The position numbers were made by a program, and so were the translations under genes. A stretch of DNA of 63,791 bases, filler included, from Asterionella formosa (Eukaryota): NCBI GenBank assembly GCA_002256025.1. It is 19 parts of 19 records of this genome, joined end to end, with 100 filler letters (N's around TTAATTAATTAA, not from the genome) between each part and the next. Parts side by side here need not be neighbours in the genome. Positions count along the whole stretch, not along the records: positions 5,790 to 34,898 come from NKIB01001083.1; 18 more parts are not named here. One strand, written 5' to 3'. Under the pieces are notes generated by a model. That model did no database searches and was not told the DNA's origin. It saw nothing but the letters and a program-made list of their open reading frames with translations. Position 1 is the stretch's first letter; every line of letters begins with the position of its first letter. Shown here in pieces: positions 1,831 to 49,208 of the stretch.

Positions 1831-1930
1831 NNNNNNNNNNNNNNNNNNNNNNNNNNNNNNNNNNNNNNNNNNNNTTAATTAATTAANNNNNNNNNNNNNN
1901 NNNNNNNNNNNNNNNNNNNNNNNNNNNNNN
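1831..1930. other. Artificial contig-joining spacer, first of 18. Others: 3761-3860, 5690-5789, 34899-34998, 36828-36927, 38757-38856, 40685-40784, 42613-42712, 44540-44639, 46468-46567, 48394-48493, 50320-50419, 52246-52345, 54172-54271, 56096-56195, 58021-58120, 59946-60045, 61871-61970
   Basis: Identical N44-TTAATTAATTAA-N44 blocks with stops in all six frames. The short flanking contigs decrease almost monotonically from about 1830 to 1821 bp. Confidence 0.99.
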
Positions 1931-2137
1931 TGGGAAGTGTGCCGTTGAAAGTATTGTCATACAAACCTAGACCTGTGAGACTTGTCAAGAGTCCAATCTC
2001 TGTGGGAAGTGTGCCGTTGAAAGTATTGTCAGACAATTCTAGATCAGTGAGACTTGTCAAGAGTCCAATCTCTGTGGGAATTGTGCCAGTGAAAGTATTG
2101 ACAGACAAATATAGAACAGTAAAACTTTTCAAGAGTC
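1931..2137 (-). CDS. Leucine-rich repeat protein fragment (three 24-aa plant-type LRRs); may be a pseudogene
   Basis: 72-nt units encoding GLL(T/K)S(L/F)TxLxLxxNTFxGT(L/I)PTEI. Runs off the contig end. Confidence 0.85.
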
Positions 2138-2887
2138 CAGTGGTGATTGTTACAACTACTGACTTGTCAATTACTTCATCAATATTGGAGAAATCCATAC
2201 CTAAGAACCACTCAACTCATTGGAAGATAGTACCGAGTAAGATGGTATTCCGTTGATTCACAATGGAACAATGCTACTCAAAATTTACATGTCACAGCCC
2301 GGAATTTTTCACCTACACCCTACACAGTGGTGATTGTTACAACTACTGACTTGTCAATTACTTCATCAATATTGGAGCAATCCATACCTAAGAACCACTC
2401 AACTCATTGGAAGATAGTACCGAGTAAGATGGTATTCCGTTGATTCACAATTGTTCAATGCTACTCATCATTTTCATGTCACAGCCAGGATTTTTTCACA
2501 TACACCCTACACGGTGGTGATTTTTCATACTACTGATTTGTCAATAGCTTCATCAATATTGGAGCAATCCATACCTATGAACCACTCAACTCATTGGAAG
2601 ATAGTACTGAATAAGATGGTATTCCGTTGATTCAAAATAAAATCAATGCTACTCATCATTTACATGTCACAGCCCGGGTTTTTTCACCTACTCCCTACAC
2701 ATTTGTGATTCTTACAACTACTGACTTGTCAATAACTTCATCAATATTGGAGCAATCCATACCTATGAACCACTCAACTCATTGGAAGATAGTACCGAGT
2801 AAGATGGTATTCCGTTGATTTACAATGGATCAATGCTCCTCATCTTTTTCATGTCACAGCCCGGATTTTTTCACCTACACCCTACAC
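2138..2887. repeat. Tandem array of four ~187-bp units
   Basis: Units start at about 2138, 2325, 2512 and 2700. All share CCACTCAACTCATTGGAAGATAGTAC and AAGATGGTATTCCGTTGATT. Confidence 0.95.
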
Positions 2888-2939
2888 ACATCTAAGACGC
2901 CGTTTACGGCACTTTTTCGAATTTATGTGTAAAGTGACG

Positions 2940-3180
2940 TATTTATGCTACTTTTTTAAAATATTATGTTACTTTTCTAAAATATTATGTTACTTTTTTG
3001 AAATATTATGCTACTTTTTCCCTAATTTATTCGGGTTAAACAAAAATTTTTTTCACTTATCGAATAATTATGTGATCACACCAATAATTATGTGTGTTCG
3101 TGACAATATATGTTGACCAACTAGCCATCGCAACAGTTTAAAAGCGAAATTATGCTGCTCTGCCGCAATATTATGCTGCT
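2940..3180 (+). repeat. Dispersed repeat, probably a DNA-transposon subterminal region with short AAATATTATGYTACTTTT repeats; second copy at about 61000-61210
   Basis: Both copies contain TTTCACTTAT..AATAATTATGT, CCAATAATTAT and GACCAACTAGCCATCRCAACAGT. Confidence 0.7.
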
Positions 3181-3440
3181 TTCACCATATAATGAACGAA
3201 AGAGTCGCCAATTCCGATACACTTATTATTTTTTCCGCTCCGACATATCTCTTTGATCTGAACTGGCAAAGAAGAACACATGCAAGAGGAAGATTCACAC
3301 TGTAGAATTCAGCACACGTAGTAGTAGTAGTTGATGTTGTAGACACATTGTTTAGTCATTGTTGATTGTAGAGATTACAATAGCCTGCCAGATTGGAAAT
3401 AAAGCACTGTTGGTCCTCGTTGAGCATCGTTTAGCATTGC

Positions 3441-3760
3441 ATGTCGCCGTAGCTAGTGAGTCAAAATTGAGATGCGCCGCAATGGCCTTCTCCGTTTCGG
3501 AGCAGCTACAAATAGTCTGCAGCAATAAGTCGAGCAAGTACAATATAGAAAAAGAAGGAAAGGATGCTGAGTAGCTCACAATAAGGAATTGAATCCGTTA
3601 TTTCGTTAAGAAACAGCTGTTGCATATTTCAACCTTGGATGTCGCCGTAGTGAGTCAAAATTGAGATGCGCCGCAATGGCCTTCTCCGTTTCGGAGCAGC
3701 TACAAATAGTCTACAGCGATAACTCTAGCAAGTACAATATAGAAAAAGAAGGAAAGGATG
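3441..3760 (+). repeat. Direct duplication of about 125 bp (3441-3566 and 3639-3760)
   Basis: ATGTCGCCGTAG...GAAAAAGAAGGAAAGGATG occurs twice with few differences. Confidence 0.9.
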
Positions 3761-4089
3761 NNNNNNNNNNNNNNNNNNNNNNNNNNNNNNNNNNNNNNNN
3801 NNNNTTAATTAATTAANNNNNNNNNNNNNNNNNNNNNNNNNNNNNNNNNNNNNNNNNNNNGTTGAAATCAGTCGAACAAAATCGGCAAATACAATCAAAG
3901 TATGCTTTATTGACAATTGATCCACATTGATCTATGTAAAGTTGCATTGGAGTCCCTAAATGGGCCCCAAGGGATTGATGAATGAGGGTGAGGCCATTGT
4001 GGGATGTTTTTGGGCTGCAGACTGGGAAACTATCCATAGAGATGGCACGCAAGGAGAAGGAACCTATTGTGGGACTCTTGAGAGGATTT

Positions 4090-4191
4090 TTCAAAATTAG
4101 CTCGTAAAAATTCCCAGTTCCCAGGAAATTTGGCAACCATAGGCAATTTTTTTTAAATTTTTTCCTAGGGGTTCAATGCAGGAAAAGAACC
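4090..4191 (+). mobile_element. End of a dispersed non-autonomous DNA-transposon/MITE family; other copies at about 10835-10968, 11045-11087, 20180-20328, 21956-21980 and inverted at 11091-11113
   Basis: Shared TTCAAAATT...AGTTCC.GG.AATTT...CTAGGG(G)TT(C/G)AAATGCAG.AACC, usually followed by TTA. Confidence 0.7.
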
Positions 4192-4821
4192 TTAATCTAC
4201 AAATCGAGCTCCTTGGCTGTAGTATGCTGCCACATGGCATGTGTCAACAACATGTAGCATACTAGGTGACAGGGAATGCACTGAAAACACTGCTCTGAGT
4301 TGACCTGTGGCCACTGATTCTTCTTTATAAATGTATTCATTTTCTCTGTATCTTGATATACCGGTATACATAACGGAAATGGTCGAATACACAAAACATC
4401 ATGGATTTTTGTATGGTAGAATCTACAGCAAGGAGTACCGGTATTTGTGCTGATTTTTTAGCTTTTTTAATCCAATATTAAATTGTTTATTTAAGCGAAA
4501 TGACGACAACTTGCCAGGTATCAACCCTTCTTTTGTTGTATAGTAATGTAAAACATCAGTTATTCGACTTATGTAGAATGTTGTGTGGAAGTATAGTTTT
4601 TTGTGGACTGTCTACTGCCCTGGGAATTCATACAGTCCTAATGCAAAACGAGAGGATTTTCCTGCTCTGTTTTGCATTATGGCTGTATGATAAAGAACGT
4701 CAGAACCTCACATACAAAATTGCAGAAAGAACGAAGACGAAAGCGCAGTGTCGTTTGCCTGATCAGTGGTCGAAGTGGTACAAGTTGTAGCACCAATTTC
4801 TGATCTTGTGGTCCGTCGACC

Positions 4822-5649
4822 ATGTCCACCGACTACAGCCGCATTGCAGATCTACACGGAGACTCCTATTTTCTTCCTTGGAATCACTTGTCAACTTGCG
4901 TACTTCCAGGGCTGGTATTTGTCACGTTGGTGCTCACGCTCTTCTATTGTACGCACCTTTGGCTGCAAGCTTCCAGATCACTCGATGTGAAGCAACAACG
5001 CAAATCAGCCTATCAATTTACCAATCTTTGTGTCAATGCCGTCTTGGGAGGACTGGGGTTGTACTATTTCTTGCGCCTGCCGTCGGAGCCGACCCTAGAG
5101 GAGAAAATCGTTGGACACAATGAATTCTATCCAATAGTGTGTTTACAGATTGGGTTTCAGCTTTGGGCCATCCCTGTTGGAATGTTCTATGTCGACGAGT
5201 CACCAGCCATGATTTTGCATCATGTCTCAGTGGTTGTTGTTGGTTGTATGGCGGGATTTACTTCCTTTGGCTTTCGATACTTCACGCCCTTCATGTTTGG
5301 CATGCTCGAAATGAGCTCAGTCCCGTTAGCAATCATGAATACCTTCAAGGACAATCCAAAATTGATTGAACGGTACCCTCTATTCTATACTGTGATAAGG
5401 CTGGTATTTGCTATCATGTTTTTAACTATTCGGTGGTACATGTTGATGCCCAGAAAGTATGACTACCTTCGGTTGAACTTACTTGCCATTATGAGTTCCC
5501 CTAGTGTGGGGTTTAGAATCTATTATTGTTTTTGTTGGTTGTCAGCCTTTTTCTTGATGATTTTACAGATCTTTTGGGGATCGCTCATTATCAAGGGGCT
5601 TGCCAAAATGGTTTTCGTCAAGGAGCAAAAGACCAAGAAAGTATTGTAG
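4822..5649 (+). CDS. TLC (TRAM/LAG1/CLN8) domain membrane protein, TLCD4/TMEM56-like
   Basis: 275-aa multi-TM ORF with MILHH, GMLEMSSVPL and RLVFAIMFLTIR motifs. Confidence 0.85.
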   Translation: MSTDYSRIADLHGDSYFLPWNHLSTCVLPGLVFVTLVLTLFYCTHLWLQASRSLDVKQQRKSAYQFTNLCVNAVLGGLGLYYFLRLPSEPTLEEKIVGHNEFYPIVCLQIGFQLWAIPVGMFYVDESPAMILHHVSVVVVGCMAGFTSFGFRYFTPFMFGMLEMSSVPLAIMNTFKDNPKLIERYPLFYTVIRLVFAIMFLTIRWYMLMPRKYDYLRLNLLAIMSSPSVGFRIYYCFCWLSAFFLMILQIFWGSLIIKGLAKMVFVKEQKTKKVL

Positions 5650-6189
5650 ATGAAGAATATTCCGCAGTACTTGTAATCCTGTTAAGGAGNNNNNNNNNNN
5701 NNNNNNNNNNNNNNNNNNNNNNNNNNNNNNNNNTTAATTAATTAANNNNNNNNNNNNNNNNNNNNNNNNNNNNNNNNNNNNNNNNNNNNGTGATCACATA
5801 ATATAGTGATGATCAGGAATGCATGCATGATACTTTGATCAAATATTTAACGTGATGTATTCAGATAATATATAGATATATTCAACTACGTATTTTGATG
5901 TATTCAACTAATTCATGTGATGCATTCAAAATCAACTAGGCTTATTTATGTGATGGTCACTTCACGTAATACGCGGCTTAGATGTGTTGTTGCAAGAATC
6001 AGATTGAAGATTGGCGAGGATGATGAGCCAAACCACATTACTTTAACAGGTACATTATCCTACCAACAAATGTAAATAAAGGAAAACGGGTTACTATTTA
6101 AATTACGAGGGCGAAAAATTATAATCAGATGATCATAATCCTATGATGCATCATAGGAATATTATTGTTTTTATTTGCAGATGCTATGT

Positions 6190-6780
6190 CCCAGTCCAGT
6201 TTTCCCAATCCATTTGGATCATGTCTTTGGCGATTCTCTCGCTGTCCAACTCATTGATCCTCCCCAGGATATTGTGGGTTCTCCAGTATTTTTTAACTTT
6301 AGTTAGATATATTTTACAGTCCTCCTGACTTGTTGACTAAAAATGTCTAAGCTTTGCTGACACTATGATATCTTTTTGATTTCCTCCGAAATTTTTTTTC
6401 GGGTCAAAGTCGATGTATATGGGGCTCTGTGGTCCACTTGAATGTTCTTATAAAATGATAAGATACCTCCTCTTTCGACCGCATCTCAGCAATGTGCACA
6501 TCCTAGAATATAGTCTCCTACAGCCCAGGTTTCTTGGTTCCTCTGTTGTAGGTAACCACCAGACTTTGCAGTTCTTGGTGGTGTTGGTGACGAAGTAAAT
6601 CTATGAGTGAGCATTTGCTCAGAATGGTTGATTTTCCTGAGGAGGTTGAGCCAATTTCCTCATTTGCATCGAGCATGAGTAGGATTTCCTTGTTGTCCTG
6701 TTGAAGTGCTTGAATGAACTGTACAAATAGTTGCTTGTTATCACCTTTTCATTTTCTTGAGGGTTCTCTGCAGAACTGGC
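6190..6780 (-). pseudogene. Degenerate non-LTR retrotransposon (LINE) ORF2 fragment, APE endonuclease region
   Basis: Minus-strand translation gives QFIQALQQDNKEILLMLDANEEIG and PIYIDFDPKKNFGG...KYWRTHNILGRINEL, broken by stops and frameshifts. Confidence 0.65.
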
Positions 6781-8126
6781 ATTCTTTCAAGTTGGTGACA
6801 CGTTTTTATATTTACATGATGATTTCGGACCCAAAGTGATGGGTGAATGCACTTGGAAAGGCATGAAACAGCAGCACCATTACATGTTGTTGTCAATTTT
6901 TATTTGCACACCATCCCACACAGATTTTTGAGATGATTTTAGTAGGCAGATTTCTTAAGTATTAAAATCAAAAATTTTAACACTAGAAACTTACTTCCAC
7001 GCATACTTGCAGAGCATACTGTTTGGTAGATATAGATGAACTTTCTAGGATGAAATACCTACTATCCAATGAGTGGAACAAGGTGTGATGGTGGATTACA
7101 GACTGAATCAAGTCTATTAGACGGAATTCATCCTAGCCTAAAAGAATCTGATATCACCAGCCAAAAGGAAATATTTACTGTTATTAGCGGGTATATCACT
7201 CATCGACGTAGACATACCCGTATTACAGTACATATTGGGTTGACATCCTACGTACATGCCCCAGTATCTATGCCAATGACAGCGATGTTTTCCTACATAC
7301 TACTTCAGTACTACCTCGTCATTCCCGTAGATCCGCCGTTAAAAATCTATCAAACACGATCTTGTTCGGCGATTTTCTACTGGCACGCGCGACGTTCGTA
7401 ACGGATTTATCTCTGAAAATGGACGCTGCGGGTTACGAAAAATGAAGGCATGTAAAATTGTTGTATGTAGGAGTCTACGTCTCGAACCTTCTACCATGGA
7501 AGGAATAGGTGGCATGTACCAGTGACTGTATCAGGGCACTCCAGTAAATACCAGTTTAGCACATGATTGCACCTGAAGGTACGCGTTTGCGTGCGGTTAA
7601 CTACCGGTACCGCTACTACCTGCCGGGCGATTTCTATTAAATTTAGAAGGGACCGTTGCAAGATACCTCATATTTCGTCATTTGATAATCGTCCACAAAT
7701 TTCGTTTTCCTTTATCTGCGGGTAAGTGAAGGCTCATTCGTGAATCTGCTGTTTGATGCTGCCAGTATCAGGACGTTTAGCTCGAGATATTAGAAACAAA
7801 CCAGTATTCGATTGATATGCATGCGTTCATAGGAATGTTGCGATGGCTTTACATTATGTTGCCGCTACAATCCTCGAGCCATACTGCACAGCCACAGCAT
7901 AGGGCGTTATATGTCACCTTTAGCATTGGTGCTTAGTGGAAAGTGATGTGGACCCCGCCGTTGAATACTTCCATTAGACCGACATATACGCTCTTGGGCT
8001 CGGCGAAAGCAGTCAAATTTGCGCTCAAAGGACTTAGAATCGTGTTGGTTCCCTTTGACTGCTGCATAACGCCAATGCGCTCACACATGTTCTCCTCGCT
8101 GACATCGTATAACAGAGTTTACCATC

Positions 8127-10055
8127 ATGGCATCGCCACTTTACGACGAGGAAAAAGTCAGCATGGTTCCAGCCATTGAATCCGCCAAGGATGCTTCCAA
8201 GAAGGTCTCTTCCCTCAGAACTTGGGGACCTGCCATGGCTGCCATTGCGTTCGTCATTGTTATCAACGGTGCTATGTTTGGGCCTCGCTTCAACCAGCTG
8301 CCTCCGACCAGCGAGAAGTATTTGAACAAGCAACGTCTTATCGCTGAACGACACTCCGCAATCATGGAGATGGATTTCGACCCTGTCGCTGACATGAAGC
8401 GCGGAAAGTCATTCGGTCCCCGCAACCTCAGCGAAGCCGATGGTGGAGTGTTGGAGTACACCCGCCGCCGTCATCGATACCTAGGAGAGTACACTCATCA
8501 GGATGTTTCAGGCGAGTTCACTCTTTTCGGAAAAATCTCAGTGTCCCTCATTTACTTCGCATTTTGGGTCTTCCTCATGTTTCCAAACTGGTTCCTTCCT
8601 ATTGGTCGTCCTGGTATTGCGCTTGGAGGTGGACTTCTCTCCGTTGTCTGGCGCTTCCTCTTGCACAAGACCGGCCAGGGACCAACCTTTTTCCCTGAAC
8701 ACGTTATCATCATGGAACCACTTTTCTTGCTCTTTGGTCTCATGCTCACAACGATCTACCTTGAAAAAATGGAACGAGGTGGACTTTTTGATAAACTCCG
8801 AGAGTCCCTTGACGACCCAGTCAACTGGAAGCGCTCAGCTAAAATCATGACAATGTCCACCATTGGCTCCGCCGCGGTCATGAATGATTCCATCGTTCTT
8901 ATCTTTTCTGGAGTTGTCGTCGATCTTTGCGTCCGTCACAAGGTCGCCAACTCTATCCCCTACCTTCTCTCCCTTGCCACAACTGCAAACATTGGATCTG
9001 CGTTGACAATGACGGGTAACCCACAGAACATTCTTATCGTTTCTCTTGCCTATGATGATATTGGCTGGTTGGAGTTCGCAAGTAACATGGTTTTGCCAGT
9101 TCTTGCCGGTACCATTATCAACACAACTATGGTCTTCACCTACTACGCTAGCGAACTGTTCCCTGGTTCATCCGGATTTGGAGAAAATATTGGAATCATG
9201 ATGGGAGGAAACAGAACACCCGAGATGCTTGCCCAAGAACATGCATTCTATGCCCGCCAAGCCGCTGCAAACGATGGAAAGGATGTCATCGAAACCCATG
9301 GATGGACTCTTTGGTCTAAGATCCAAGTGCTAATTGTTACACTTTTCTTGATTTGCTTTGCAATGGGACTGGATGTCTGTGTTGTCTCTTCCTGCGCAGG
9401 AGCACTTCTCATGTGCGTTGCCGCTTACAAGCGCCAACACTATGACCCTAAACCAGACACCAGCGAATATGATGCCGACGGCAATGTTATCCCAACCAAG
9501 AAGACCTATGACATGAATGGAAACGAAATCGAGCCAGAAGAACAGGAGCTCATTACCGAATCTGAAACTACTTTGACTGAAGTTGATTATGGTCTGCTTA
9601 TGCTTTTCATTGGGCAGTTCATCCTGATTGGTTCTTTTGATGATACCGGCGTTCCTCAAGCATTCTTCAACGTCACTATGGGTGGCTGTGCTGATAAGAT
9701 GACTGAAGGAGCTTGCGTTTACTGGTTTGTCATGATTGTTACAATCTTGTCAAACATCGCATCTAACGTGCCCATTTGCCAAATGCTTGCTGCCACTTTC
9801 CCTTTTGCAAGTCCATATGACTGGCTTCAAGTGTCTTTCTCTGCCACTGTGGCTGGAAACTTGACAATGCTTGGATCTGCAGCCAATATGATTGTTGCAT
9901 TCCAGGCCGCCAAGGTTGGAGATCGAACCTTTACCTCTGAAAGGCATGCTCCATTTGGAATTCCCTCAACCCTCCTTGTGTTGTATGCCGGTACATTTTT
10001 GCTTGCAACTGTCCATTTCTCGCCTGATTGCTCTGTTAAGCTTGGTGAATGTTAA
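8127..10055 (+). CDS. Lsi2-like putative silicon efflux transporter (ArsB/NhaD/CitMHS ion-transporter superfamily)
   Basis: 642 aa, intronless. Motifs LPIGR, LLFGLM...YLE, PYLLSLATTANIGSALTMTGNPQNILI, SNIASNVP and ATVAGNLTMLGSAANMIV match the plant Lsi2 pattern. Confidence 0.85.
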   Translation: MASPLYDEEKVSMVPAIESAKDASKKVSSLRTWGPAMAAIAFVIVINGAMFGPRFNQLPPTSEKYLNKQRLIAERHSAIMEMDFDPVADMKRGKSFGPRNLSEADGGVLEYTRRRHRYLGEYTHQDVSGEFTLFGKISVSLIYFAFWVFLMFPNWFLPIGRPGIALGGGLLSVVWRFLLHKTGQGPTFFPEHVIIMEPLFLLFGLMLTTIYLEKMERGGLFDKLRESLDDPVNWKRSAKIMTMSTIGSAAVMNDSIVLIFSGVVVDLCVRHKVANSIPYLLSLATTANIGSALTMTGNPQNILIVSLAYDDIGWLEFASNMVLPVLAGTIINTTMVFTYYASELFPGSSGFGENIGIMMGGNRTPEMLAQEHAFYARQAAANDGKDVIETHGWTLWSKIQVLIVTLFLICFAMGLDVCVVSSCAGALLMCVAAYKRQHYDPKPDTSEYDADGNVIPTKKTYDMNGNEIEPEEQELITESETTLTEVDYGLLMLFIGQFILIGSFDDTGVPQAFFNVTMGGCADKMTEGACVYWFVMIVTILSNIASNVPICQMLAATFPFASPYDWLQVSFSATVAGNLTMLGSAANMIVAFQAAKVGDRTFTSERHAPFGIPSTLLVLYAGTFLLATVHFSPDCSVKLGEC

Positions 10056-10240: not shown

Positions 10241-10526
10241 CATCTGATAAATGCTCCCAAATATTTTAAGTAAACGAAATAATAAAAACAGCATATTACT
10301 TTATTCTAGCTAGTTGTTAATGTATTTATACAATAATTGTTTTCTCACTGGTCACCGCCATGAAAAAAATCAATAACAACAACATCTGATAAATGCTCCC
10401 AAATATTTTATGCTAACGAAGAAATAAAAACAGCATATTATTTTATTCTAGCTAATTGTTAATGTATTTATACAATAATTGTATTCTTATTGGTCACCGC
10501 CATGAAAAAAATCAATAACAACAACA
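10241..10526 (+). repeat. Tandem duplication, 2 x ~142 bp
   Basis: CATCTGATAAATGCTCCCAAATATTTTA...CCGCCATGAAAAAAATCAATAACAACAA starts at 10241 and again at 10383. Confidence 0.9.
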
Positions 10527-11036
10527 TGAGTGATGCCAATGACATTTGCGATGGCGAGATCCTTGGCTTGAGATATATTTCAACAGTCGAAGCTGCAAGT
10601 TGCAAGCTTGTTGTGGCGCGATCATCAAGCTGAATGCTACAGGCTCATGTAGTGCTGGCCTCGATGTTGTTGGCTTGCCGGAAGCATTTAAGAGAATCAT
10701 TTTCGTCGTCTGCCTAATGATGCAGAAATATTTCATGTATGGCATATTTCTGGTCCAATAATCATATAAGCGATGTGATTGGCTTATATATATCCATCAC
10801 GATCCAACTTGTAGCATCAACACAAATTATTAAAATTTCCAGTGATTCAAATATTTCAATTGGAATCACGTTATTCAAAATTAACTCATAAAAATTCTTA
10901 GTTCCAGGGAATTTCGGCAACCCTAAGCAATATTTTAATTTTTGCCTAGGGGTTCAAATGCAGGAACCTTAAGTACAAACGGGTACACACTCTAGGAATT
11001 ACTACAAATGCCATCAAAAAACTCGAGCGCACCACC
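10430..11036 (+). repeat. Dispersed repeat with a diverged inverted copy at about 27345-27830
   Basis: GATGCCAATGACATTTGCGATGGCGA and GGCTTGCCGGAAG here match TCGCCATCGCAAATGTCATTGGCATC and CTTCCGGCAAGCC on the other strand at 27570-27735. Confidence 0.85.
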
Positions 11037-12089: not shown

Positions 12090-12720
12090 ATGCTATTTGA
12101 AGGTTAGTACCTATGTATTGAATTTGCCTTCAAACCCAGTCAGCCAACGTTGGGTCTTTGCTAGTATCGTCTCCAAAATATCGGTTTTTAGTTGTAAAAT
12201 CTCCTGTACAAAAAGTTACATTGTAAGGGCCCGCTACATTTTTCATATTCTGCGTTATAATACTTATATCCGTTTGATTGGCCCGGTTGGCAGGGTTTTT
12301 CAATCCCACGCTGGCCACACTAGATAAGCTGGATCCACATGCAACAATTTTCTTGCATGTTGGCCGATGCTATATATCCACTATCAGAGTACCTGTTACG
12401 GAGTAGCTAGGAGTTCTGAGTTACCTCGTACTCCCTGTGGTTGAAAATAACTGCGTCGAATCGCCGGCACCACTAGCGTCTTGACTGTTCGCATATGAAG
12501 GATTATGTAGCCAACATACCATCTGTCTACGTGAGGATTGGTGGCTTGCTCGAAAAAATGCGTTTTTTATGAGTTACATACACGTGAACATATACTCTGT
12601 TTATGTAATTAAATTAATCGCATTTAAGTAAATTATTCGAACCCAGTTCAACATATAAATATTCAACAGTATATGAGTATAAATTCATATACAAATGACA
12701 ACCAACAGTTGACAAAAAAG

Positions 12721-13164
12721 ATGACGACTCGACGTAACTTTCAGCCAAACAACATTGTTGCCGACGATGTTGTTGTTGGGAGGGAGCCAGATGGAGAGAT
12801 TCTTGGGCTAGGGGCGTGCAACAATCGGAGTACTTGCAAGTTCCACTATCCATGTGGAAGTGCTGTTTCTGTTGGTAGTAAGGTTCTGTTTGTGTCTACC
12901 TACATCGATGACGAGATCACTAGTGAAAAATAACGCGTTATTCAAGTCAAGATGGAGAGCGCGAAAGCTCTAGGAACACTGTTTGTTGTGGGTTAAATCT
13001 CAAGGTATAACTCAGGAAACAGAGATAGGGCTCTCAATCATGTTGGCCGGAGTGCCACGGTTTTGGAGCTACTACACAATTCCTCCAATTCGGCAAAGCG
13101 GCGCATGAACATTCGAGGTTATGGAGTATCTACTTTTGTCTTCGATGATCTAGTTGAAAAATAA
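12721..13164 (+). pseudogene. Accessory ORF2 inside the mariner TIRs (about 147 codons, two in-frame TAA); unknown protein with CxxHxxC and VGY.SR motifs
   Basis: One frame: ...DGEILGLGACNNRSTCKFHYPCGSAVSVGSKVLF...VVG*ISRYNSGN...VGRSATVLELLHNSSNSAKRRMNIRGYGVSTFVFDD. Collinear homologue at 48494-48915. Confidence 0.85.
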
Positions 13165-13487
13165 TTTATATAGCAACACACATTTATGTGTAGTAAATAT
13201 TTAAATGGTAGTTTATGGTTCATAAATCGTAAATTTTAACAAATTTATGTGGATATATGATAAATAAGCCATGTTGATACACAAAGTATTTATATGGATA
13301 ATGACTGTTTACTAAAGTATAATTAACACAAAGTAGCTATATAGATAATAACTGTGCACTATAGTATGATTAGTAAAAAGGACGACAGGGGAATGTTTTG
13401 AATCTTTTGCAGCCATAGTACGGCGCCAGAAAAGAAAACCCCTGTCCCCTGAACGAAATTATCAACTGACATCATTCCGACCAACCC

Positions 13488-14314
13488 CTAGTCTATATCT
13501 TCTCCATCTCCATCTAACTCATCTATGGAAGTACTTGCCAATTCAATCGCCTCGTCACTTGCGTCCAGTCGCACTGGTAGTATTCCTTGTCGTTCCAGTG
13601 CTGCTTTTTTCCCCATATGCGGAATGTCATAATCGTTGTCTCCCTGCCTGTTAGTCACCTCCTCAAGAATTCCCGGTAAAGTAAGAAACAAACAATTCAA
13701 CCTCATCGGTTCAAAAGATTTATATGCTGCTGTCAATGCCTCCACCAACCCATCCACATCATGATTAGCGTCCTCCACTCAATCCCATTGCCCACTCTGA
13801 AGTGCCCGAAAAAAAAACTGAGATTGTTGATATTCATTTCTGGTGAGTTTGCCGGTTGCCCTGTTAAATTTATATCCATCCATCCAAAGTAGCTGCGTCT
13901 AGCTAGAAACGGAACATAATCGCTTCCGAAATGAGTGCTTGCGTTGTCGTGTTGGATGTATACTGTCTTACAGCCATTGACACCAACCGGCCATTTCTCT
14001 CGAATTGCTGGAATTACATTTTTGATGATCATGTCTGCGTAGCTCTGCTTTGTAACCTGTAGATTCATCGTTATCATTGTCCCTGCTAGTCTGTGCGTTT
14101 ATCGAGTTCCTAAGAGCCGGAGTCTGCTGAATGAAGGGCCATATACCAATCTTCCCATCAAATACATGTGCACACTCGATTTTTGTCATATCTGGGGCGA
14201 ACAATGATTGCGGAGAGAAACATCACTTTTCAATGTGATCCTTGTGTTTAGTTCTACGAATGGGTCCCCTCGCTCCCTTAGTCAAGTAGAACCGCAAGGT
14301 AACAGCATTTGTAT
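13488..14314 (-). pseudogene. Mariner transposase, C-terminal catalytic part (frameshifted)
   Basis: KHKDHIEKVMFL, FDGKIGIWPF, VIPAIREKWP, YIQHDNASTH, QPANSPEMN and GDNDYDIPHMGK are plant/stramenopile mariner motifs. Confidence 0.92.
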
Positions 14315-14735
14315 TGACAAAATATCGAACCGTGTATTCTATTTTATGTGATTCGATCAAATCGATTAAATGACAATATGATTATATTTGAATGAACGAT
14401 GGCGCGTAAGAATTCAATGGAATGAATCTAGGATTTGACATGAGATGACAATTCATTTATTGTAAAGTGTGAAAACCAAGACACTGGAGAAATCATGGTG
14501 GGGAAACAGACCGTGTTCGGGAGTTAACAGTTGTTGCTATGGACAACAATCTGAGAAAAGTTGATCTTTGGAGTTTTAGTTTTAGCTCATAACAAGTAAA
14601 GTGTGAAATCTGTTTTCAAGTTTAGTTTGGAGTCTTAAAACGTAAGACAAGTGAAGTTATCAACAAAGCTACTAGCAATACGAATAGTTGGACAAGTAAG
14701 CTTGCAGCTATTAACGTAAACTAGATACTTTAACA
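14315..14735 (+). repeat. 5' LTR (421 bp)
   Basis: TGACAAAATATCGAA...AGATACTTTAACA; direct repeat of 18815-19239, roughly 90% identical by eye. Confidence 0.95.
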
Positions 14736-14772
14736 CATTTATAAACGAACCTTTGTATCTACAACGTCTACC

Positions 14773-17700
14773 ATGGTGGAAGAAGATAAAAGTGAGTCTA
14801 TTCATCATTATAAGTTTGATGGCGATGAAGACAAGTGGCATGAGTGGAGCTCCAAAGCTCTATCTCTAGCCAAGACAAAAGGATTCAGGAATGCATAGTA
14901 CGCTATTGACACCAAGCCATGCAGTGACGATGAATACTACAAGACGGCTGAAAAATTGATGAAAGCAACCTACAAAGCCAACGACAAGGCATTTGAGTTT
15001 CTGATGATGAGTTCCTCTGGAATCGCATATGGGCTAGTCAACCAGGCAAAGAAAGCAACACTCAAGGATGGAGATGCTTATCTTGCTTGGAAAAACCTAT
15101 GCGCTCGCTATGCACCACACGAAGTCTTGGATTACATCTATCTATCAGAAAATTTCAATAGATGCAGACTTGAGACGACCAGAACGGACCCAGAAACTTG
15201 GTTCATCAAACTTGAAACGCTACGGAACCAGATGCAAATGATTGATGTAAAGTTCACGAAGTCAGATGAAGAAATCGTGGCTCACATCATAGATCGACTT
15301 CCAAAGGAATACAGTGAAGAAGTCACTGTGGTTGAGGGAATTCAAAATGTAACTTACAGGAGGAAAGGGAAGATTCGAGCATTTCACAAACGTGGATTCA
15401 AGAAGGACGTGAAAGACAAAGAAGAAATTGCTCTCTATGCAGGAGGAAAGTTCAAAGGTACATGTCGCAACTGTGGAAAACAAGGTCACAAATCGGCAGA
15501 CTGTTGATCGAAGACAAACACAACTGGCAACAAAGACGGAGGCGGTCGTGGTATCAAATGCTTTAATTGCAACAAATACGCAGGTCATGTGGCAAAAGAT
15601 TGTCCAGAAGAAAGGAAAATCAAGATGTCACCAGGCGAAACAAAAGAAAAGGAAACCGGCATGTTTGTTGGAATGGTTGATGGGGTATGCTCCAATGACG
15701 CATGGCTGGGACACAATTGATGATTCACACACGAAAGAAAATCATGAGGATGAAAATGAAAGTGATGGAACCTACGAGCTCATTGGTGTTTCGGTTGAAA
15801 TCATCGAAAATGAGAATACGGAAAATAATGCGACGATGATGCATGAAACAAAAAATTGGTGCACACACATGATGAGTTTTTTGCTATGCATACTGAATCC
15901 GAAATATGGTTAGCTGATATGGGAGCTATGAGCCATGATATTATCACGTGCGACAAATTTATGACTAATGTCCAGAAAGTCAATGTGAAAGTGATCGTGT
16001 GAGATGGCAAGGAAGTTACATGTAACAAACGCTGACAATAAGGAAGCATTTATGTCTCAAACATCTACTTTATGCCCCTCTTCTTCATAAAAATATTGTC
16101 AGCATTGAAAAATTTGTCCAACAAAGGCAACAATACGGCATGGAAATGCGCGGAATGTTATTGACAATCAAGAAAAAGGGTCATTCTGATGTCTTGAATT
16201 TCACACGTGATGACCAACAGATCTTGTATTATTTTACGGGCAAACGGGCTCTACCTAAACAAGTGACGTCTGTAAATGTCTCTACGGAAATTGTGGTACA
16301 AGACTACGTTGAGAAACACAATATCAAGATTGAATTCACAGCTCCAAACACGCCACAGGAGGGGGTTTGTGACGATTCGTCAACGTGCTTGTGCTGCTAT
16401 GTTCGCACCAAGTTTTTCAGATGAATTCCAAGGTCTTTTGTGGGCAGAGGCTACTAGCACTCTCATAAGATTATCAAACAGTGTGGCATCGACCAAAGAT
16501 GTTAAAAGTGCTGACAAACTATTTTATTGTCATTTACCTACGGTTTACAAGCATCTTATTCAGTTCGGTTGTGTGGGCTGGGTGAAGAATAGTTCAAAGA
16601 AGGTTACTAAACTTGATGCCAAGGCTATTAAGTGTGTAATGATTGGTTACAGTCATAATCATTCCGGCGTTACGTCTAGAATGTTCAACCCAAAAAAGAA
16701 AGAGGATAATCAACAGTTGCAAAGTGAAATGGGCTGATTGGCACGGGACATTGGATCCTATGGCAAAAATGCAAAATTTTGACATTCACAAGTCCACAAT
16801 CGAGATTATTGAAGAATATTGTGATTCTGATGACGACCTCAAAAAGATAGTTGATACAGAGGATACTGAAAACGACAACCTTGGCTGGTGTTGAGAATGC
16901 AAATGATTCTGTGACTACCCCTGCAGTTCGTTTTGATAATGATGTTTCTTTCAGAAATAATTTACTTGAGAAAAATGCAAATTTTGCACGAGCATTATTG
17001 AAATTGGATGGAATGGAAAAATGGACAGAAGTTATTGGTAAGGGTGCTCAACGCTCCCTTCGCTTCACACCTAAAAAATCTTCACTCTGAGAATCTGTTG
17101 TTTGTGTTGAAGAGAAACCAGATTCTGTGGAACTTCTATGCAACCCTGAGGGTTTTGAGATTTATTATGCATATTCTACGACGCTTGCTTCCAATGCTAG
17201 TGAACCTAGAACATATAAGGAGGCCCTTAAACATCAGGATGTTGCTAATTGGACATTGGCAATTAAAGGGGAAATTGACAACTTTTACAACAGGATGTCT
17301 GGAAAAAGGTCCCCAGGACTATTTTAAATGGCCGGAAATCTCTTGGTACACGTTGGGTGTTCAAACAAAAACCAGAACAAGACAAGAGTTTTCGATATAA
17401 AGGTCGAATTGTGGTCAAAGGATATGTTCAAATACCTAATCATTTGCTCCTGTTGCTACTGTTGCTTCTATGTGGAGCATTCTTTTCCATTACGCGATAT
17501 AATTGGCATCAACATGTCAAAGATCAATGGATTTGCGAAATTATTGATGTGGAAGATGCATTTCTCGAAGGAGATATGGATGAAAGCATTTACATTGAAT
17601 GGCCTGATGGAATTCTAGATTACGGTTTTGAATCTTTTGACACTATAAAGATCACATACATCTTACTGGAGAAAGCCATGAACGGTACGGTGCAGGCCGC

Positions 17701-18817
17701 ATTAGAATTCTTCAAGAAGCTGGTTGAGAATGTTACTCTCATTGGTTTGGAACAAAGCAAAGTGGACCCATGTGTTTTTTTCATGAAGAAGCAGGGTAAA
17801 ATGATACTGATTATTTGCCCTAATGTTGATGATTGTGCTATTGCAGGCAAACTTTCCAATGTTCAGTGGTTCATATCTTTGATCAAGAAATATTTTACAA
17901 TTAAGGGACTCGGCATTCTACATACACTTTTGGGTGTACGAGTGGGGTGAAGACACAACCGGTCGATCATATTTAGAAGCAAGCATGGAAAATTTTGTGA
18001 CAGTTATGATTAAAGACTTTAAAGCATTGTTTAAGAAACTACCACGCACAGCAACGACTCCAGCTCTTCCATGTACTATTTTGAGAAAGAATGATGGGAA
18101 TACTATTCTACACAAAGAATTTCGTTCTATGGTTGGGAAGCTGCTATATTTGTGAAGAAAATTGGCACAGTATGTGCCAACGCATATCGAGAACTATCAC
18201 AACACTTGGAAAATTCGGGAGAAGCGCAATGGAACGCTGTGAAAAGGCTTCTTGGATATTTTTCTATGATTATATGACATCGAAAATTGAAAATGAGACC
18301 ACGTTGAGCAATGAGAGTTCAAGACGTTGTGGATAGTTCATTTGGTGACAATCCTGATACTCGGAAGTCAACAAGTGCCTACATGGGAACAATTGGTGGT
18401 TCTGCTTTGATTAACTGGATTTCAAAAGGTCAACCAATTGTGACAGTATCAAGCACTGAAGCTGAATACGTGGCTTTATCTGATGGATCAAAAGAGACAA
18501 GGTTTATTACAAATCTACTTTCTGAGGTGACCAATGTGATAATGTCAAGTCTTCTGTCTGAAGATAATACTGGTGCAATTTTTCTATCGAAAAATCCACA
18601 GGTTGCTTTTAGAACCAAACATATTGATGTCCCTTATCACTTTATTCGAGTGAAAGTGAAAGCAGGGGCCATAAAAGTTTCATCTGTCAATACATTAAAG
18701 AATCCCGTCCGCGATTTGCTGTCTAAAAATGTGACACAAAAAGTGCATGATGCGCATGCCTTTCATATTTTGAATGGATTCATGGATTGCTGGGATCGAG
18801 ATCAGGAGGGAGAGTGA
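14773..18817 (+). pseudogene. Copia gag-pol with many stops and frameshifts and a partly deleted integrase
   Basis: Zinc knuckles CRNCGKQGHKSADC and CFNCNKYAGHVAKDC; protease WLADMGAMSH; integrase EFTAPNTPQ and KLDAKAIKCVMIGYS; RT YKGRIVVKGYVQIP, DVEDAFLEG and NVDD; RNase H DSSFGDNPDTRKST and SSTEAEY. Confidence 0.93.
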
Positions 18818-19239
18818 CAAAATATCGAATCATGGATTCTTTTTTATGTGATTCGATCAATTTGATTAAATGACAATATGATTATATTTGAATGAACGAG
18901 GATGGCGCGTAAGAATTCAATGGAATGAATCTTGGGTTTGAAATGAGATTTCAATTCATTTATTGTAAAGTGTGAACAACCATGACATTGGAGTAATCAT
19001 GGTGGGGAAAAAGATCGTGTTCCTCGGGAAATAACAGTTGTTGCGATTGACAATAATCTGAGAAAAGTTGATCTTTGGAGTTTTAGTTTTAGCTCATAAC
19101 AAGTAAAGTGTGAAATCTGTTTTCAAGTTTAGTTTGGAGTCTTAAAACTTAAGACAAGTCAAGTTATCACCGAAGCTAGCAATGCAAATAGTTGGACGAG
19201 TAAGCTTGCAGCTATTAACTTAAACTAGATACTTTAACA
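18815..19239 (+). repeat. 3' LTR (425 bp)
   Basis: Directly follows the PPT and has TG...CA termini. Confidence 0.95.
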
Positions 19240-19689
19240 TTGTCTGAGGTCGTATCACATCCCGCTGTTGCTTGTCTTTTGCGATTGAATAAACTGTGGA
19301 TTTTGGCAAATTAAGTGCTGACGCTAGCTTACGATATGTAGTGCGCTTCTGGAAAGGAATTTCCTTTATAGCTGCAATCACGTCGTCACGATTATATTTT
19401 TGCTTACGATCTGACCCGTATTTGCGGGAAAGCGAGGAAAATTTGTCACTATCCTCTAAATAGTAAGAGGTGAGGGCGCGATTAAATGTACGCTGCGCGG
19501 TACTCTTATTAACTCTAACCAATGCGACATGAATTTAACGGTTTTAGGCAACAAAACGAGCCGACCGTTTATTTCGTCTCTTCCATCAGGCCCTTTTTTG
19601 AGGTTCCGTAAATCATAATCGAGAATCATTTGACGCTCTTCTACTGTCAAATCCCTTCTCTTAGACTTGTTAAGATTGAGTTGTGACAA
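19240..19689 (-). pseudogene. Mariner transposase, N-terminal DNA-binding part (frameshifted)
   Basis: RRDLTVEERQMI and IKEIPFQKRTTYRKLASALNLPKSTV...VIRP form the HTH region typical of plant-type mariners. Confidence 0.9.
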
Positions 19690-21630
19690 AAACTGGGGGG
19701 TGAGGCATCTGCATTTTGCTTGAGATAGGCAAAAGTGAAAATCGAAAAGCCGAAAAACATTTCTTGAAACGTAGTTGCCAATTTAAAATATCTTCATCTA
19801 TATTATACATAGATCTGTAGCTTTTTGGATAGCGTACAATAGGGCAATTGAACCGGAGAATATCGTAGGAATCAAAATTGAAATGGATAAATTTTTCCAA
19901 TTGCCGCAAATATTTTCAATCAGAGGGAGTACCTGGTACTACCAGGTACCTGGGCGATACCTTGCTTTAGCTGATCATCATTGGCCATAGTAGTGTACGC
20001 ATACCAGTAAATTGTTAGTAGAATGCACTTTTAAATATTTTTCCAAGCGGCTAGGTCATATAAATGACAGATATTTGTTGATTTGAGCATAATACCGGTA
20101 GAGTAGCTATGTTTACATTCAGCGATGTAGAATCTATATAAGTCTATTTAGGGCATTTGAAAAGGCATCTATGTTCATACGCGCAAATCTCCACTGATTT
20201 AAATACTTCAAATGGAATCATCGATTTTCAAAATTATGGCATAAAAGTTCTTAGTTCCAGGGAATTTCGCTCGGTAACCTTAAGCTATTTATTATTATTT
20301 GACGTACTAGGGTTGAAATGCAGCAACCTTACAAATCTTACATAAAACCTGTGGTCCCGTCTCCTCTAAAATGAACAAGAAACACCTCAAGACTATATTG
20401 CTCACCTCTGGGTATTGATCGAAACTATCCCCACTCACGTGGAACCCTTTTCGTTATGGATAGTATTTTTGATCACAGATGTAGCTTTTTTGTTTAGAGA
20501 AGCGATTATTTTAGTTTCTCTACTTTATCTGATAGGTGTCTAATTTAACAGGCTTTTTGTCCCCTGTTTTGATGCCTGAACCTTTGACTCACCATGGTAT
20601 TCACCATGTGAATTGCTTGCATTTGTTAACAAGAACAAATCTCATCCAGGAGTATAGCTAATTAAGATGACATCTTTTTGCTAGTCTAGAAAAAGCTAAT
20701 GCACTAAGACACAACAGTAGAAACTCTGTATTTATAGAAGCTATATATACTACAGTCGTATGCAACAATGTCAAAATTTTCCAGTTTTCCGGGTTCGTTG
20801 TTAAAGCTAAAACTTGCTTTGCTAGTTTCCCTGATTTTTTGATGAGGCTTGTCAATAAGACCCTACAGCACTTTTTGGACTGGCTAGTTTATAGTAATCA
20901 TTGGTCAAAATTGATTTGATCGGAAATAAGCGCATAAATACATAGATTCATTTTAAATTCGCTAAATATAAATTTAAACATTCTACATCACTCAATGCAA
21001 AGCATTCTAGTACTGGTATTCATACAATCAATGATGATCAGCTGCAGGTAGTGGATTCAGTACCTACAAACTCCAAAAAAATGTTCCATGTCATCCAGTG
21101 GTGTGGCCAGTGTGGGTTTGCAAGACCGCACAAACTGGACCAATGAAACAGAGGTAAGTAATTCACAATAACCAATCAGAATACAGTAAATAATGCAGCA
21201 TGCACTTACCATGGAATTTTTTGTACAGGACGAGATTTCAAGACTAAAAATTTTAGGACAAGACTAGTACTATTCCGATTTTGACGTTTTGGCGCTTAGT
21301 GATTCTGATTCTGATGCAATTGCTCAATGTTGGCTGGGTTTGAAGAAGAATTAAATACATAAGTAATCTTCACATTGATCATCATATTATATATGTGGAA
21401 GCAGGCACTTACAATGGAATTTGTTGCACAGGAGATTTTAGGACCAAAAATTCCAGTTCACAACTACTATTCTGATGATGACATTTCAGCTCATAGTAAG
21501 CAATTCGGATTCCGAAATTTTGGTGACTGTAGAAATGGCCAATTTTGTCGAATTTTTGGATGATGATAGCTTAATGTTGGCTGGGTCTGAAGGCAATTTA
21601 GACACATAGTAGGTAATGTTCAAATAGCAT

Positions 21631-25765: not shown

Positions 25766-28108
25766 GTTGTAAATAAAAAGAAGACGAAATATGTTTGCAA
25801 CGTAGAAACAAAAGTCCCTGATGTCTTTGCCTTCGATCTCAACAATATCTGTGATGCAACAGAAGTATTTTGTCGGTGAAGAAATGGGAATTATGACGAG
25901 AGAAGGGAGAGTCCAGTACTGGAAATCAACGCAGCAAAACGGCGAGGAGGCTATCTTTTCTGTACTTGCTAGGGGGAAGTACCTGGTACCCTGGTACCAG
26001 GTACCTGGTAGTACGCCTAGCGAAATGCAAGATGAGGATTGATTCGCTGACGACAGTAGAATCTATTCAGGCGATAAGGAATAGCTAATCAATCCACCAT
26101 GGATGATTTCGTTGGCTACAAAACACTGACGTTGCATTTTCGTGACACTCCAGAGCGTGTAGCGGTTGTGGACTTGCAATAAGATTACATAGTCTCGCTC
26201 GTGTTAAGGGGTGCGTTCAGCACTTAGTCGGACATCTGGATGGACATCCCATTTGTCACAATCGTGGTGTATGGGAACCCCAATTTGAAATTTGCGAAGA
26301 CAAGCGTTGACATACCGGCACTGCCGATACCAGCTTCCCTGGTACCTGGTACCAGGGACCGGTACCTGTACCTTGCAAGTTGCGGTCATTTGGCTTAAAT
26401 AAACAAATTAATTTCCGAGAAAGGAAGCTAAAGTTTTAGTTTCAGCACAATTACCGCAACTTGCTGGTACCATACAGGAACTCCGAGCACCAGGGTGCAG
26501 TAGTACTCTTACGACCAGCCTATCCATATTCCGGTGGTACAAGGGTACCGGGTACCTGGTATGGTACCTGGTGCCTTGTGCCTTGTGCCTGGTACCAAGT
26601 AAGCAGGTACCTATGTACCGACACTGTGTAGTATGTAGTACCTGGTACTGCAAACTTCATTGTCGTGCCCCCCCCCCCCAAATGTATACTGCCGTGACTG
26701 AATTTGACTTATTTTACCTCAAGGGGGGGGCCAGGACAATAACGAGATTTCCCTTATAATACTGGGTAGACCTAGCTGGACTACTTAAATTTTATCGGTT
26801 CTACAGGGTGGTGCGCATTTTTCCAATAAATATTAAAATATGATCATTATCTCCATAAAGTGAAAAATGGGAAAGTTCTTCAGCTTGCCAGAAAGACGCG
26901 ACTTCATGTTGCTATCACTGATCTCAATTTTCAAAGGCATTATTAGTGTTATTACTTTACTTCTGTTACGATGGTATTTTCTATTTTGTGCTTAATATAC
27001 TGGTATGTAGCAAGTAGCAAAGCTTTGTTCTCAATTTTCGCAGAGATAATTTGTATTTTTGTCATGGTCAAGGTTGCGACAACCACCAACATGATGCAGG
27101 GTTCTCCAGGAAGGTCTGGTACTGCACATTTTTGCGCATCTTTTCAGTTACAATTCACTCCCAATGATTTGTACTTATAAGGGGGTGTACAAGACATTGG
27201 ACCTTTTTTGAAAATCCAACACTGGGAGCAAACCAACTTCACCACCGTTTTCGCCTTAGTCTAAAACATTAACAGCAACATTAAAAGATTTATTGTTGTT
27301 GGTTGAAACAGTTTCTATGACCAATAGAATTTCTATTTTTGGTGCACTGGTGCGCCCGAGTTTTGTGATGGCATTAATAGCAATTCCTAGAGTGTGTACA
27401 AATTTGGACCTAATCCCACAGCGATATTAACTTTTGTAGACTCTACGACTTGGATCGTGATGGATATTAATATAAGCCAACCACATCACTTATATGATTA
27501 TTCGACCAGAATCATGACATGCACGAAAGATTTTTGCATCATGGCTGAGGCAGCAGACAAAATGATTCTGTCAACACTTCCGGCAAGCCGACAACATCAA
27601 TACCAGAACTGCCTGACGAGCCTTTAGCATTCAGCTTGATAATCACTCCACAACAAGCATGCAAGTTGCAGCTTCGACTTTTGAAATAGATCTCAAGACA
27701 AGGATATCGCCATCGCAAATGTCATTGGCATCGCTCGTGTTGTTGTTGATTGTTGTTTCATGATGGTGACCAGTAAGAATTCAATTACAGTAAATACATT
27801 GACAACTAGCTAGAATACAATAATATTCTTTTTTTTCTGTAGACATAAAATATGTGGGGTTGTTGTGCCAGATGTACGAAGGGGTGTACAAGGTATCTGG
27901 GGTGACACGAGAGACCAGGTTTTACGGTAATCCCATTCCTACTTAGAAAACCGAGGGGCAATTGCAGGAGACCACCTCGGGCGTGTATTGCCTTCAGCAA
28001 AAGCAATTATCGCAACTGTTGGCTGGGCTGCGCCTGCCGGTAGAATAATGGATGCACCACCACTGCCTAATAATGCATACGCCTACAGCATGTGAGAATA
28101 ACAACACC

Positions 28109-48493: not shown

Positions 48494-49208
48494 TAATCGA
48501 AGGCAAAAGGAGCCACTCTGTATTCTCGAATATTCATGCGCCACTTTGCCGAATCAGTAGAATTGTGTAGTAGCTCCAAAACCATAGCACTCCGGCCAAC
48601 ATAGGTGAGAGTCATACCCAAATTCCCATCATTGTACCTGGAGCGGTATCCCCCAACACACATTGTTCCTGGAGTGTTCGCGTTCTCCATCTTGAATTGG
48701 ATTGCCTGCTTTTTCTCACCAGTGATTTCGTCAGCAATATATGCTGACAGAAACAGGACATTACTGCCAATAGTAACTGCACTTCCTCATGGATAGTGGG
48801 GCTTGCATGTTCTTCCATGGTTGCATGCACCTAGCCCACCAATAATCTCTCCATCCGTCTCCCTACCACTAAACACATCGTCGACAACTTCCATCTAGCT
48901 GTGAGTCGTCCTCATTTTCGTTAAAAATCTACGAGTCTACCAACCGTCATTTCTATATATATTTATACTCAAATAATATTACATATTTATATTTTAAGTT
49001 AGTTTCGATTAGTTTATATAGATGCTAATAAGTCACTTACAGAAACAGGTATATGTTCACATCTATGTAACTCATAAAATATGCTTTTTTTCGAGTAAGC
49101 TAATCCTCATGTACAAAATGGTATGATGTCTACATAATCCGTCATAAATAAAGCTGCTCAGCACTTGGTTCGCTGCAAATCGACACAACTATTTTCAACC
49201 AGAGGGAG
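48494..49208 (-). mobile_element. Second, diverged copy of the ORF2-bearing end of the mariner (ORF2 homologue 48494-48915, TIR ending at 49208)
   Basis: TATTTTCAACCAGAGGGAG TIR, subterminal sequence homologous to 12431-12590, and a collinear ORF2 translation. Confidence 0.9.

Follow-up and report, generated by a model that had tools for sequence, protein, structure and literature searches.

Does a transposon of the Tc1/mariner group carry a second gene of its own? Textbooks present Tc1/mariner and pogo elements as transposons with a single gene, and gene-transfer tools in wide use are based on them; the question is raised by a stretch of 63,791 nucleotides from Asterionella formosa (assembly GCA_002256025.1; hereafter the window). 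A decayed mariner-type element at 12431..19929 of this window contains, in addition to its transposase, a second open reading frame (ORF), here called ORF2. The first-pass annotation of the locus had proposed that ORF2 is a heritable part of a plant-type mariner family and that it encodes an accessory protein with CxxHxxC and HIRAN-like motifs. We found that ORF2 is very probably a decayed copy of the gene for a transposon-encoded accessory protein, neither a passenger nor a host gene. What the first-pass annotation observed was confirmed and its interpretation is supported, with the amendment that ORF2 should be viewed more broadly, mainly as an accessory gene of pogo elements that is found here in a mariner-type element.

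ORF2 as a coding gene

Copy 1 of ORF2 (P0001, 147 codons; 12721..13164, plus strand) lies between TA-flanked CTCCCT inverted ends and is convergent with a minus-strand transposase. This is the arrangement originally described, and the transposase proved to be decayed and split by a copia element. Copy 2 (P0002, 133 codons; 48496..48894, minus strand) is truncated where its 1.83 kb piece of the window ends; it adjoins subterminal DNA and an inverted end (48895..49208, minus strand, with the inverted end at 49190-49208). The copies had been said to share the same end, the same subterminal DNA and an ORF2 at the same distance. The first two likenesses and the presence of ORF2 were borne out, but the distance from the ATG to the element end is 290 nt in copy 1 and 314 nt in copy 2, and copy 2 is flanked by CA rather than TA.

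The two copies are 73% identical in DNA over 737 nt and 64% identical in protein over 131 amino acids. Copy 1 is interrupted by TAA at 12931 and 12994, and copy 2 by a single TGA (codon 36), at a position that encodes Cys in copy 1. As had been noticed, these stops are complementary (TAA/AAG, TAA/TAC and TGT/TGA), and all indels within the conserved part are in frame. The ratio of non-synonymous to synonymous substitution (dN/dS, NG86) for the pair was 0.37 (bootstrap 0.22-0.61, 129 codons), compared with 1.39 and 1.21 for off-frame controls on the same alignment, and the differences fell on codon positions 1, 2 and 3 in the numbers 27, 20 and 39. ORF2 was therefore once a selected coding gene, as expected if the ancestor encoded an intact protein. 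Selection acted during some of the period after the two copies diverged, and neither remains functional today.

Relatives of ORF2 and their carriers

A Pfam scan of the two window copies gave no match, and a word-based search with ORF2 found one close fragment. A HMMER search against 1.84 billion representatives returned 32 proteins at E ≤ 0.001, including full-length proteins of 120-200 residues, and a profile built from 25 of these 32 matches extended the set to 163 proteins of about 120-300 residues. All are unnamed or labelled 'hypothetical protein', are without a precomputed Pfam domain, and come from short environmental contigs. Judged from their sequences, they constitute an unannotated family of single-domain proteins of about 125 residues. 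Copy 1 matched the family hidden Markov model with E values of 1e-13 and 4e-10 on its two halves.

Conservation was assessed in 132 sequences with the numbering of P0009, the closest intact relative, which is 37% identical to both window copies. Residues conserved in at least 90% of the sequences were E15, I16, G18, L19, N24, G25, R26 and S27 in the N-terminal part; C28, H31, C34, G35, A62 and C78 in the middle part; and P84, R85, Y108, S111, K116, G125 and A127 in the C-terminal part. The C-x2-H-x2-C motif that had been singled out from the window copies is thus nearly invariant together with a fourth Cys: C28 is invariant, H31, C34 and C78 each reach at least 90%, and the same pattern was obtained with a set of 73 sequences. 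In copy 1 the fourth Cys is replaced by Phe. The family layout consists of a short N-terminal strand (EIVGL), the C-x2-H-x2-C motif, a later C.VGF.PR strand that contains the Cys, and a basic C-terminal helix (KRRKS). An Atlas search with P0009 gave no usable match, and a scan of viral contigs revealed no relative of ORF2.

To place these proteins in their genomic context, we scanned metagenome contigs of the Joint Genome Institute with patterns from 14 family members and obtained 40 loci. A convergent pogo-like transposase was present downstream of the ORF2 homologue in 32 of the 40, a proportion that carries less weight for our reading than its size suggests, given that the loci stem from few sample series and main-clade patterns and are not independent draws. 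Six of the eight loci without a transposase have at most 111 nt after ORF2. In a collection of genomes, both real loci (L041 and L042) showed the same convergent pair; a third match, L043, was rejected as a chance hit of only 14 residues. With the two scans combined, the transposase was present in 34 of 36 loci that have at least 172 nt downstream of ORF2. L041 and L042 are located on short contigs of a bin labelled Sphingobacteriaceae; their size and content make it probable that they are eukaryotic DNA binned in error.

A Pfam scan of 24 flanking ORFs identified the kind of transposase. Nine ORFs downstream of ORF2 (in L001, L003, L004, L007, L009, L011, L021, L022 and L023) passed DDE_1 with 64.7-102.8 bits (cut-off 22), and CENP-B_N was found in L009 and L004 with 22.4-22.5 bits against a cut-off of 21.2. 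A separate DDE_1 ORF upstream in L023 (575-1336) carries HTH_Tnp_Tc5 at 64.4 bits. The claim that ORF2 is a heritable second gene is therefore upheld by its convergent position in 32 of 40 and two of two loci, but these carriers are pogo and not mariner elements.

Comparison of the loci revealed a sharply bordered common unit of 2.47-2.50 kb. In nine loci whose flanks differ, inverted ends of 24-27 nt, which begin with CCGTA next to TA, lie at these borders and enclose both genes, and inverted ends of the TACCGTA/TACCATA type, 28-30 nt long with arms 93-97% complementary, surround both genes in L023, L041 and L035, so that ORF2 and transposase lie inside TA-flanked inverted ends in twelve loci in total. 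Between these locus groups, transposase similarity is only 31-38%. In L009 the start of ORF2 is 292 nt from the end, and the stops of ORF2 and transposase are about 70 nt apart. ORF2 is intact in L001, L002, L003 and L005, whose sequences agree at 99.1-99.8% over 2.5 kb, and L001-L003 each have a different right flank; near-identical copies in different flanks point to recent movement of the two-gene element.

Between sub-families, the dN/dS ratio (omega) of ORF2 was 0.054 (L001/L013), 0.085 (L022/L020) and 0.046 (L011/L021), and that of the transposase for L001/L013 was 0.087. The non-synonymous distance (pN) of ORF2 was smaller than that of the transposase in every pair compared, and amounted to 0.05-0.15 between elements that differ in their ends and subterminal DNA. 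ORF2 is under purifying selection as strong as that acting on the transposase and is inherited with the element inside the inverted ends.

Other features were noted at these loci. A Harbinger-type transposase (DDE_Tnp_4) is located directly beside the two-gene pogo element in L003 (472-3059) and L001 (151-1468), accompanied in L003 by a DUF6818 protein. L019 contains, at 588-806 on the minus strand, a second and distant ORF2-like fragment (DIVGIKEPSRGRSCEEHAVCG), which precedes the main ORF2 homologue and runs in the opposite direction. In L028, L032, L034, L037 and L040, the N- and C-terminal halves of ORF2 are not in one frame, as a result of either introns or decay.

Predicted fold and possible role

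To gain insight into the protein, we obtained structure models with AlphaFold. Prediction from three sequences yielded a predicted local distance difference test score (pLDDT) of 30.2, and prediction from 132 sequences yielded a confident model for P0009 (pLDDT 90.7, predicted template modelling score 0.83) with six strands and three helical stretches. When this model was compared with 48,161 representative chains by VIA-align, 3k2y ranked first (Z 6.6, 91 residues, 3.6 Å), HLTF 4xzg second (Z 6.3) and Rad5 6l8o (residues 183-289) third (Z 5.1), with the next row at 4.3. Re-ranking of a Foldseek list placed five HIRAN entries on top, with Z values of 5.1-6.8. The HIRAN matches cover 84-91 residues. 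Among viral models only weak rows were obtained, two of which were named HIRAN. Given that HIRAN representatives outrank all other structures and cover most of the domain, the ORF2 family is likely to have a HIRAN-like fold. It resembles HIRAN (HLTF, Rad5 and bacterial Lp_0118; PF08797) in size and beta-barrel fold, and stand-alone HIRAN proteins also exist (Lp_0118). In HLTF, a pocket formed by N90/N91 and neighbouring residues accommodates the 3'-OH end. The HIRAN likeness put forward in the first-pass annotation thus holds for the five best matches among solved structures, but not for sequence.

We assign a probability of roughly 0.6 to the reading in which ORF2 is the gene for a transposon accessory protein that has a HIRAN-like fold and is carried by both pogo and mariner-type elements, leaving aside how the protein might act. 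Several results weigh against it. The likeness to HIRAN is at the level of the fold, and sequence membership in PF08797 was not found: a comparison of 132 members with Pfam at E ≤ 10 listed 25 families, none of them in more than four members and HIRAN not among them; none of the 15 sequences in smaller Pfam scans matched HIRAN; and the family profile gave no match to PDB sequences at E ≤ 10. With Foldseek, the P0009 model had no match in the PDB at E ≤ 0.001, the rows of highest probability being HLTF HIRAN entries (0.82, with a low template modelling score of 0.40-0.44) and 3k2y, and Z values of 6-7 are middling according to VIA-align's own note. In contrast to HIRAN, with which it has no detectable sequence likeness, the family possesses the C-x2-H-x2-C motif and C78, which, to judge from their conservation, probably form a four-ligand zinc site (CHCC). 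It also differs from the HIRAN of SNF2 proteins in being transposon-encoded and not fused to an SNF2 motor. With regard to the carriers, L016 and L034 have 722 and 544 nt downstream of ORF2 and no transposase, and a mariner-type context of ORF2 is known from this genome only. Finally, the window copies are dead, so that a present function cannot be demonstrated from the window.

How might such a protein serve the element? Its gene would be a second gene near the left end, convergent with the transposase, in elements of the IS630-Tc1-mariner group, which move by cut-and-paste. The transposases of such elements cleave both strands, so that the element is left with 3'-OH ends and the donor site with short 3' overhangs. 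In HLTF, the HIRAN domain binds single-stranded DNA at its 3'-OH end and guides the protein to such ends, according to passages of one study (PMC11237066), and the domain is thought to derive from phage replication systems, as set out in part of another (PMC3417536). The ORF2 protein may likewise bind free 3'-OH DNA ends, in which case it would act on the 3' ends that result from transposase cleavage, whether those of the excised element or those of the donor break. Binding could shield the excised element until integration or steer repair of the donor break, and either effect would increase the success of the element. On the basis of the predicted fold, we regard 3'-end binding as a tentative mechanism with clearly less than even odds. 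The most far-reaching version, a widespread and undescribed two-gene Tc1/mariner/pogo class in which a HIRAN-like zinc protein handles 3'-OH ends and the module has moved between pogo and mariner, appears rather doubtful as a whole. A predicted complex of the L009 transposase and ORF2 protein (score 0.00, mark 0.34), made with no alignments and no controls, bears neither way on binding.

An alternative that we consider unlikely, but that survives better than the others, is that the accessory protein binds the subterminal DNA of its own element in a sequence-specific manner, or is a regulator analogous to Myb-like or anti-silencing proteins, and that it recruits or restrains the transposase. 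The fixed position of ORF2 near one end (290 nt in the window and 292 nt in L009) would suit such a protein, as would the zinc-knuckle-like CHCC motif and the basic helix, and two-gene DNA transposons exist in other superfamilies. The best fold matches, however, are with end-binding HIRAN and not with Myb or homeodomain proteins. In L009 the convergent stops make overlapping transcripts likely, so that mutual or self-regulation is conceivable. Sequence-specific binding is more difficult to reconcile with the low pN of 0.05-0.15 between elements with differing ends and subterminal DNA, including the occurrence of both CTCCCT and CCGTA ends, given that conservation of the protein across differing ends is better explained by recognition of a generic feature of DNA than by that of a specific site.

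It is very improbable that ORF2 is a captured host gene and a passenger without a role in transposition. DNA transposons do capture host fragments. But the gene occupies the same place and orientation beside transposases that are only 31-38% alike, it is accompanied by a transposase in 34 of 36 loci with sufficient downstream sequence, and its pN is lower than that of the transposase in the same pairs. For host genes captured once, the first-pass annotation had anticipated a dN/dS near 1 among transposon copies; omega among these copies was 0.05-0.09. A search for longer, fused or host-type forms (432-2000 amino acids) also found none, which is weak evidence by the tool's own note. That the two window copies resemble each other because of signals in the DNA itself (transposase binding sites, for example), and not because of a protein, can practically be dismissed, since, although the non-coding subterminal DNA upstream is likewise conserved between the copies, the differences are distributed 27/20/39 over codon positions, omega is 0.37 in frame against 1.2-1.4 off frame, and a profile from proteins of other organisms matches both copies at E 1e-13.

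The window element and other two-gene transposons

The window is composed of one long piece of 29 kb (5790-34898) and about 20 short ones of approximately 1.83 kb, which are joined by N44-TTAATTAATTAA-N44 spacers (at 1831-1930, 3761-3860, 5690-5789 and 34899-34998, then every ~1.93 kb). Because the pieces are joined artificially, distances between them are meaningless. The long piece contains the element at 12431-19929, and one of the short pieces begins with the second copy. On the left, the TA target duplicate (12429-12430) and the inverted end CTCCCTGTGGTTGAAAATAACTGCG occupy 12429..12455 on the plus strand; on the right, the partner end CTCCCTCTGATTGAAAATATTTGCG, in its minus-strand reading, and TA at 19930-19931 occupy 19905..19931. 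The two ends form an inverted repeat of 34 nt that is 82% alike. Their CTCCCT portions are CTCCCTGTGGTTGAAAATA at 12431-12449 and its partner at 19911-19929, each with TA beside it. The 19-nt end pattern has three matches in the window (the two ends and 49190-49208) compared with 0.34 expected, and none of 100 shuffles contained three or more, which corroborates the inverted repeats first reported. Both a TA target-site duplication and terminal inverted repeats, by which IS630-Tc1-mariner elements are recognized, are present in the window copy.

The 3' part of the transposase (13488..14314, minus strand) contains the QHDNASTH ... QPANSPEMN region together with frameshifts and a stop and has no Pfam match; the 5' part (19240..19689, minus strand) contains a frameshifted helix-turn-helix region with a weak HTH_23 match. 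Between them is nested a Ty1/copia long terminal repeat (LTR) retrotransposon (14315..19239, plus strand) with matches to gag, zinc knuckle, integrase SH3 and RVT_2, which accounts for the element length of 7.5 kb. Its LTRs (14315-14735 and 18815-19239) are about 91% alike, its own reading frames are disrupted, and it is flanked by the 5-bp sequences TTGTA and TTGTC. A 47-nt unit is present in two tandem copies (83% alike) at 13279-13372, between ORF2 and the transposase stop.

The window also contains remnants of other sequences. A decayed ORF2-like relic found by the family search (10463..10758, plus strand; DGEILGL followed by out-of-frame NSRSCKLQACCG) is located in a repeat at 10398-10832, and its inverted partner (KSRSCNLHACCG; 27542..27721, minus strand) in a repeat at 27425-27858. 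The two repeats are an inverted pair, 82% alike and 17 kb apart, and in each arm the decayed remains of the N-terminal part of another ORF2-like gene are present together with the DNA upstream of it. An 88-nt stretch at 60367-60453 is 77% alike to the left subterminal DNA at 12596-12682. The pieces 52346-54171 and 54272-56095, adjacent in the window, are 99.5% identical over 1826 nt, and 791 nt are common to two further pieces (1052-1830 and 58494-59283, 93%); each of these pairs represents either a repeat or one locus sampled twice.

Among the public runs that contain the stretch, X5 carries the label algae metagenome, and several others the label freshwater metagenome. Coverage was examined in X5 and in three RNA runs. 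In X5, the left terminal and subterminal DNA (12431..12620, plus strand) is covered far more deeply than the rest of the element, at 113,000-253,000 compared with about 1,100-8,800 over 12620-14300, or 15 to 200 times. Such extreme depth of the first 190 nt is as expected if short derivatives share that end, and a very abundant derivative resembling a miniature inverted-repeat transposable element (MITE) probably does so. One X5 contig has G for T at 12931, giving GAA in place of the first TAA, and thus indicates that further copies of the element exist in X5. Contigs from the RNA libraries of two runs cover 12726-13144 with the stops retained; they may reflect DNA carry-over and were not counted as expression.

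The window transposase pieces had no match in Pfam and none in the PDB. In the Atlas, a 114-residue piece lay near DDE_3 clusters (score 0.93), with 23 of 30 matches carrying DDE_3. We also considered whether the window element is a decayed pogo element. The pogo transposase, as protein and as profile, matches nothing in the window, and the window pieces match nothing in the 40 metagenome loci; this possibility was therefore rejected. Two motifs read by eye, QHDNASTH and QPANSPEMN, resemble those of plant-type mariner-like elements, as do the CTCCCT ends, and the tentative 'plant-type' label is based on these motifs and on the nearest DDE_3 Atlas clusters. In plant-type (DD39D) mariner-like elements, 39 residues separate the second and third catalytic Asp. 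On a tentative alignment to the family motif, the spacing from QHD to the NINN-L site is ~40 residues, as counted by eye on the decayed copy, with Asn at the position expected for the third Asp. By these sequence features, the window element is probably of the mariner type (DDE_3-like) with CTCCCT ends, whereas most ORF2 relatives of known context belong to pogo (DDE_1). In a quick maximum-likelihood tree of 55 members, which is unrooted and in which most rows lack a known context, the window copies are placed on a long stem within a clade of 19 rows (99% by the Shimodaira-Hasegawa-like approximate likelihood-ratio test) that also holds the pogo-borne L023, L024, L026 and L033. This placement only suggests that the ORF2 gene has moved between the pogo and mariner transposon lineages.

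To our knowledge, plant-type mariner-like elements have been described with a transposase only. These elements and Stowaway MITEs share with the window element the TA duplication, CTCCCT-type ends and QxDNAxxH and QPxNSP motifs, and they have abundant short derivatives with common ends, as in X5; the window transposase differs from theirs in being too decayed for a Pfam match. Harbinger/PIF elements are two-gene DNA transposons that encode a transposase and a Myb-like protein. Like the elements described here, they move by cut-and-paste and carry a second gene for a small DNA-related protein inside their inverted ends, but they belong to the DDE_Tnp_4 superfamily and differ in target duplication and in the fold of the second protein. 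The Harbinger-type transposase beside the pogo element in L001 and L003 belongs to a separate element.

Exceptions to the one-gene rule within the Tc1/mariner group are TBE and Tec of ciliates, which have three ORFs; in the portions of the source that describe them (PMC7325037), the additional ORFs encode a site-specific recombinase or a zinc-finger protein or are small and uncharacterized, both elements are confined to ciliates, the inverted ends of Tec are very long, and no HIRAN-like protein is described. The pogo-type element Lemi1 of Arabidopsis, which appears with 'two orfs' in part of PMC1636448, resembles the present elements in that wording but was rejected as a precedent, since according to the same text its two orfs are exons of one transposase. 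In passages of a survey of pogo elements, no extra ORF is mentioned (PMC7386202), and other accessory proteins occur in brown-algal transposons according to passages of PMC12477816. We found no description of such an ORF2 gene in the literature, a search whose scope did not extend to supplementary tables (for example, Table S1 of PMC7386202) or Repbase.

That such elements carry a conserved second gene, selected as strongly as the transposase in active copies, implies that a transposase by itself does not suffice in their natural hosts. If it is true that the ORF2 protein binds DNA 3' ends, transposition would be tied directly to the handling of the breaks that it makes, and the handling of breaks decides whether an element gains copies. 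With ORF2 as an accessory gene of transposons, at least 163 'hypothetical proteins' of environmental eukaryotes gain a name and a context, and the HIRAN fold would gain a stand-alone, transposon-borne branch.

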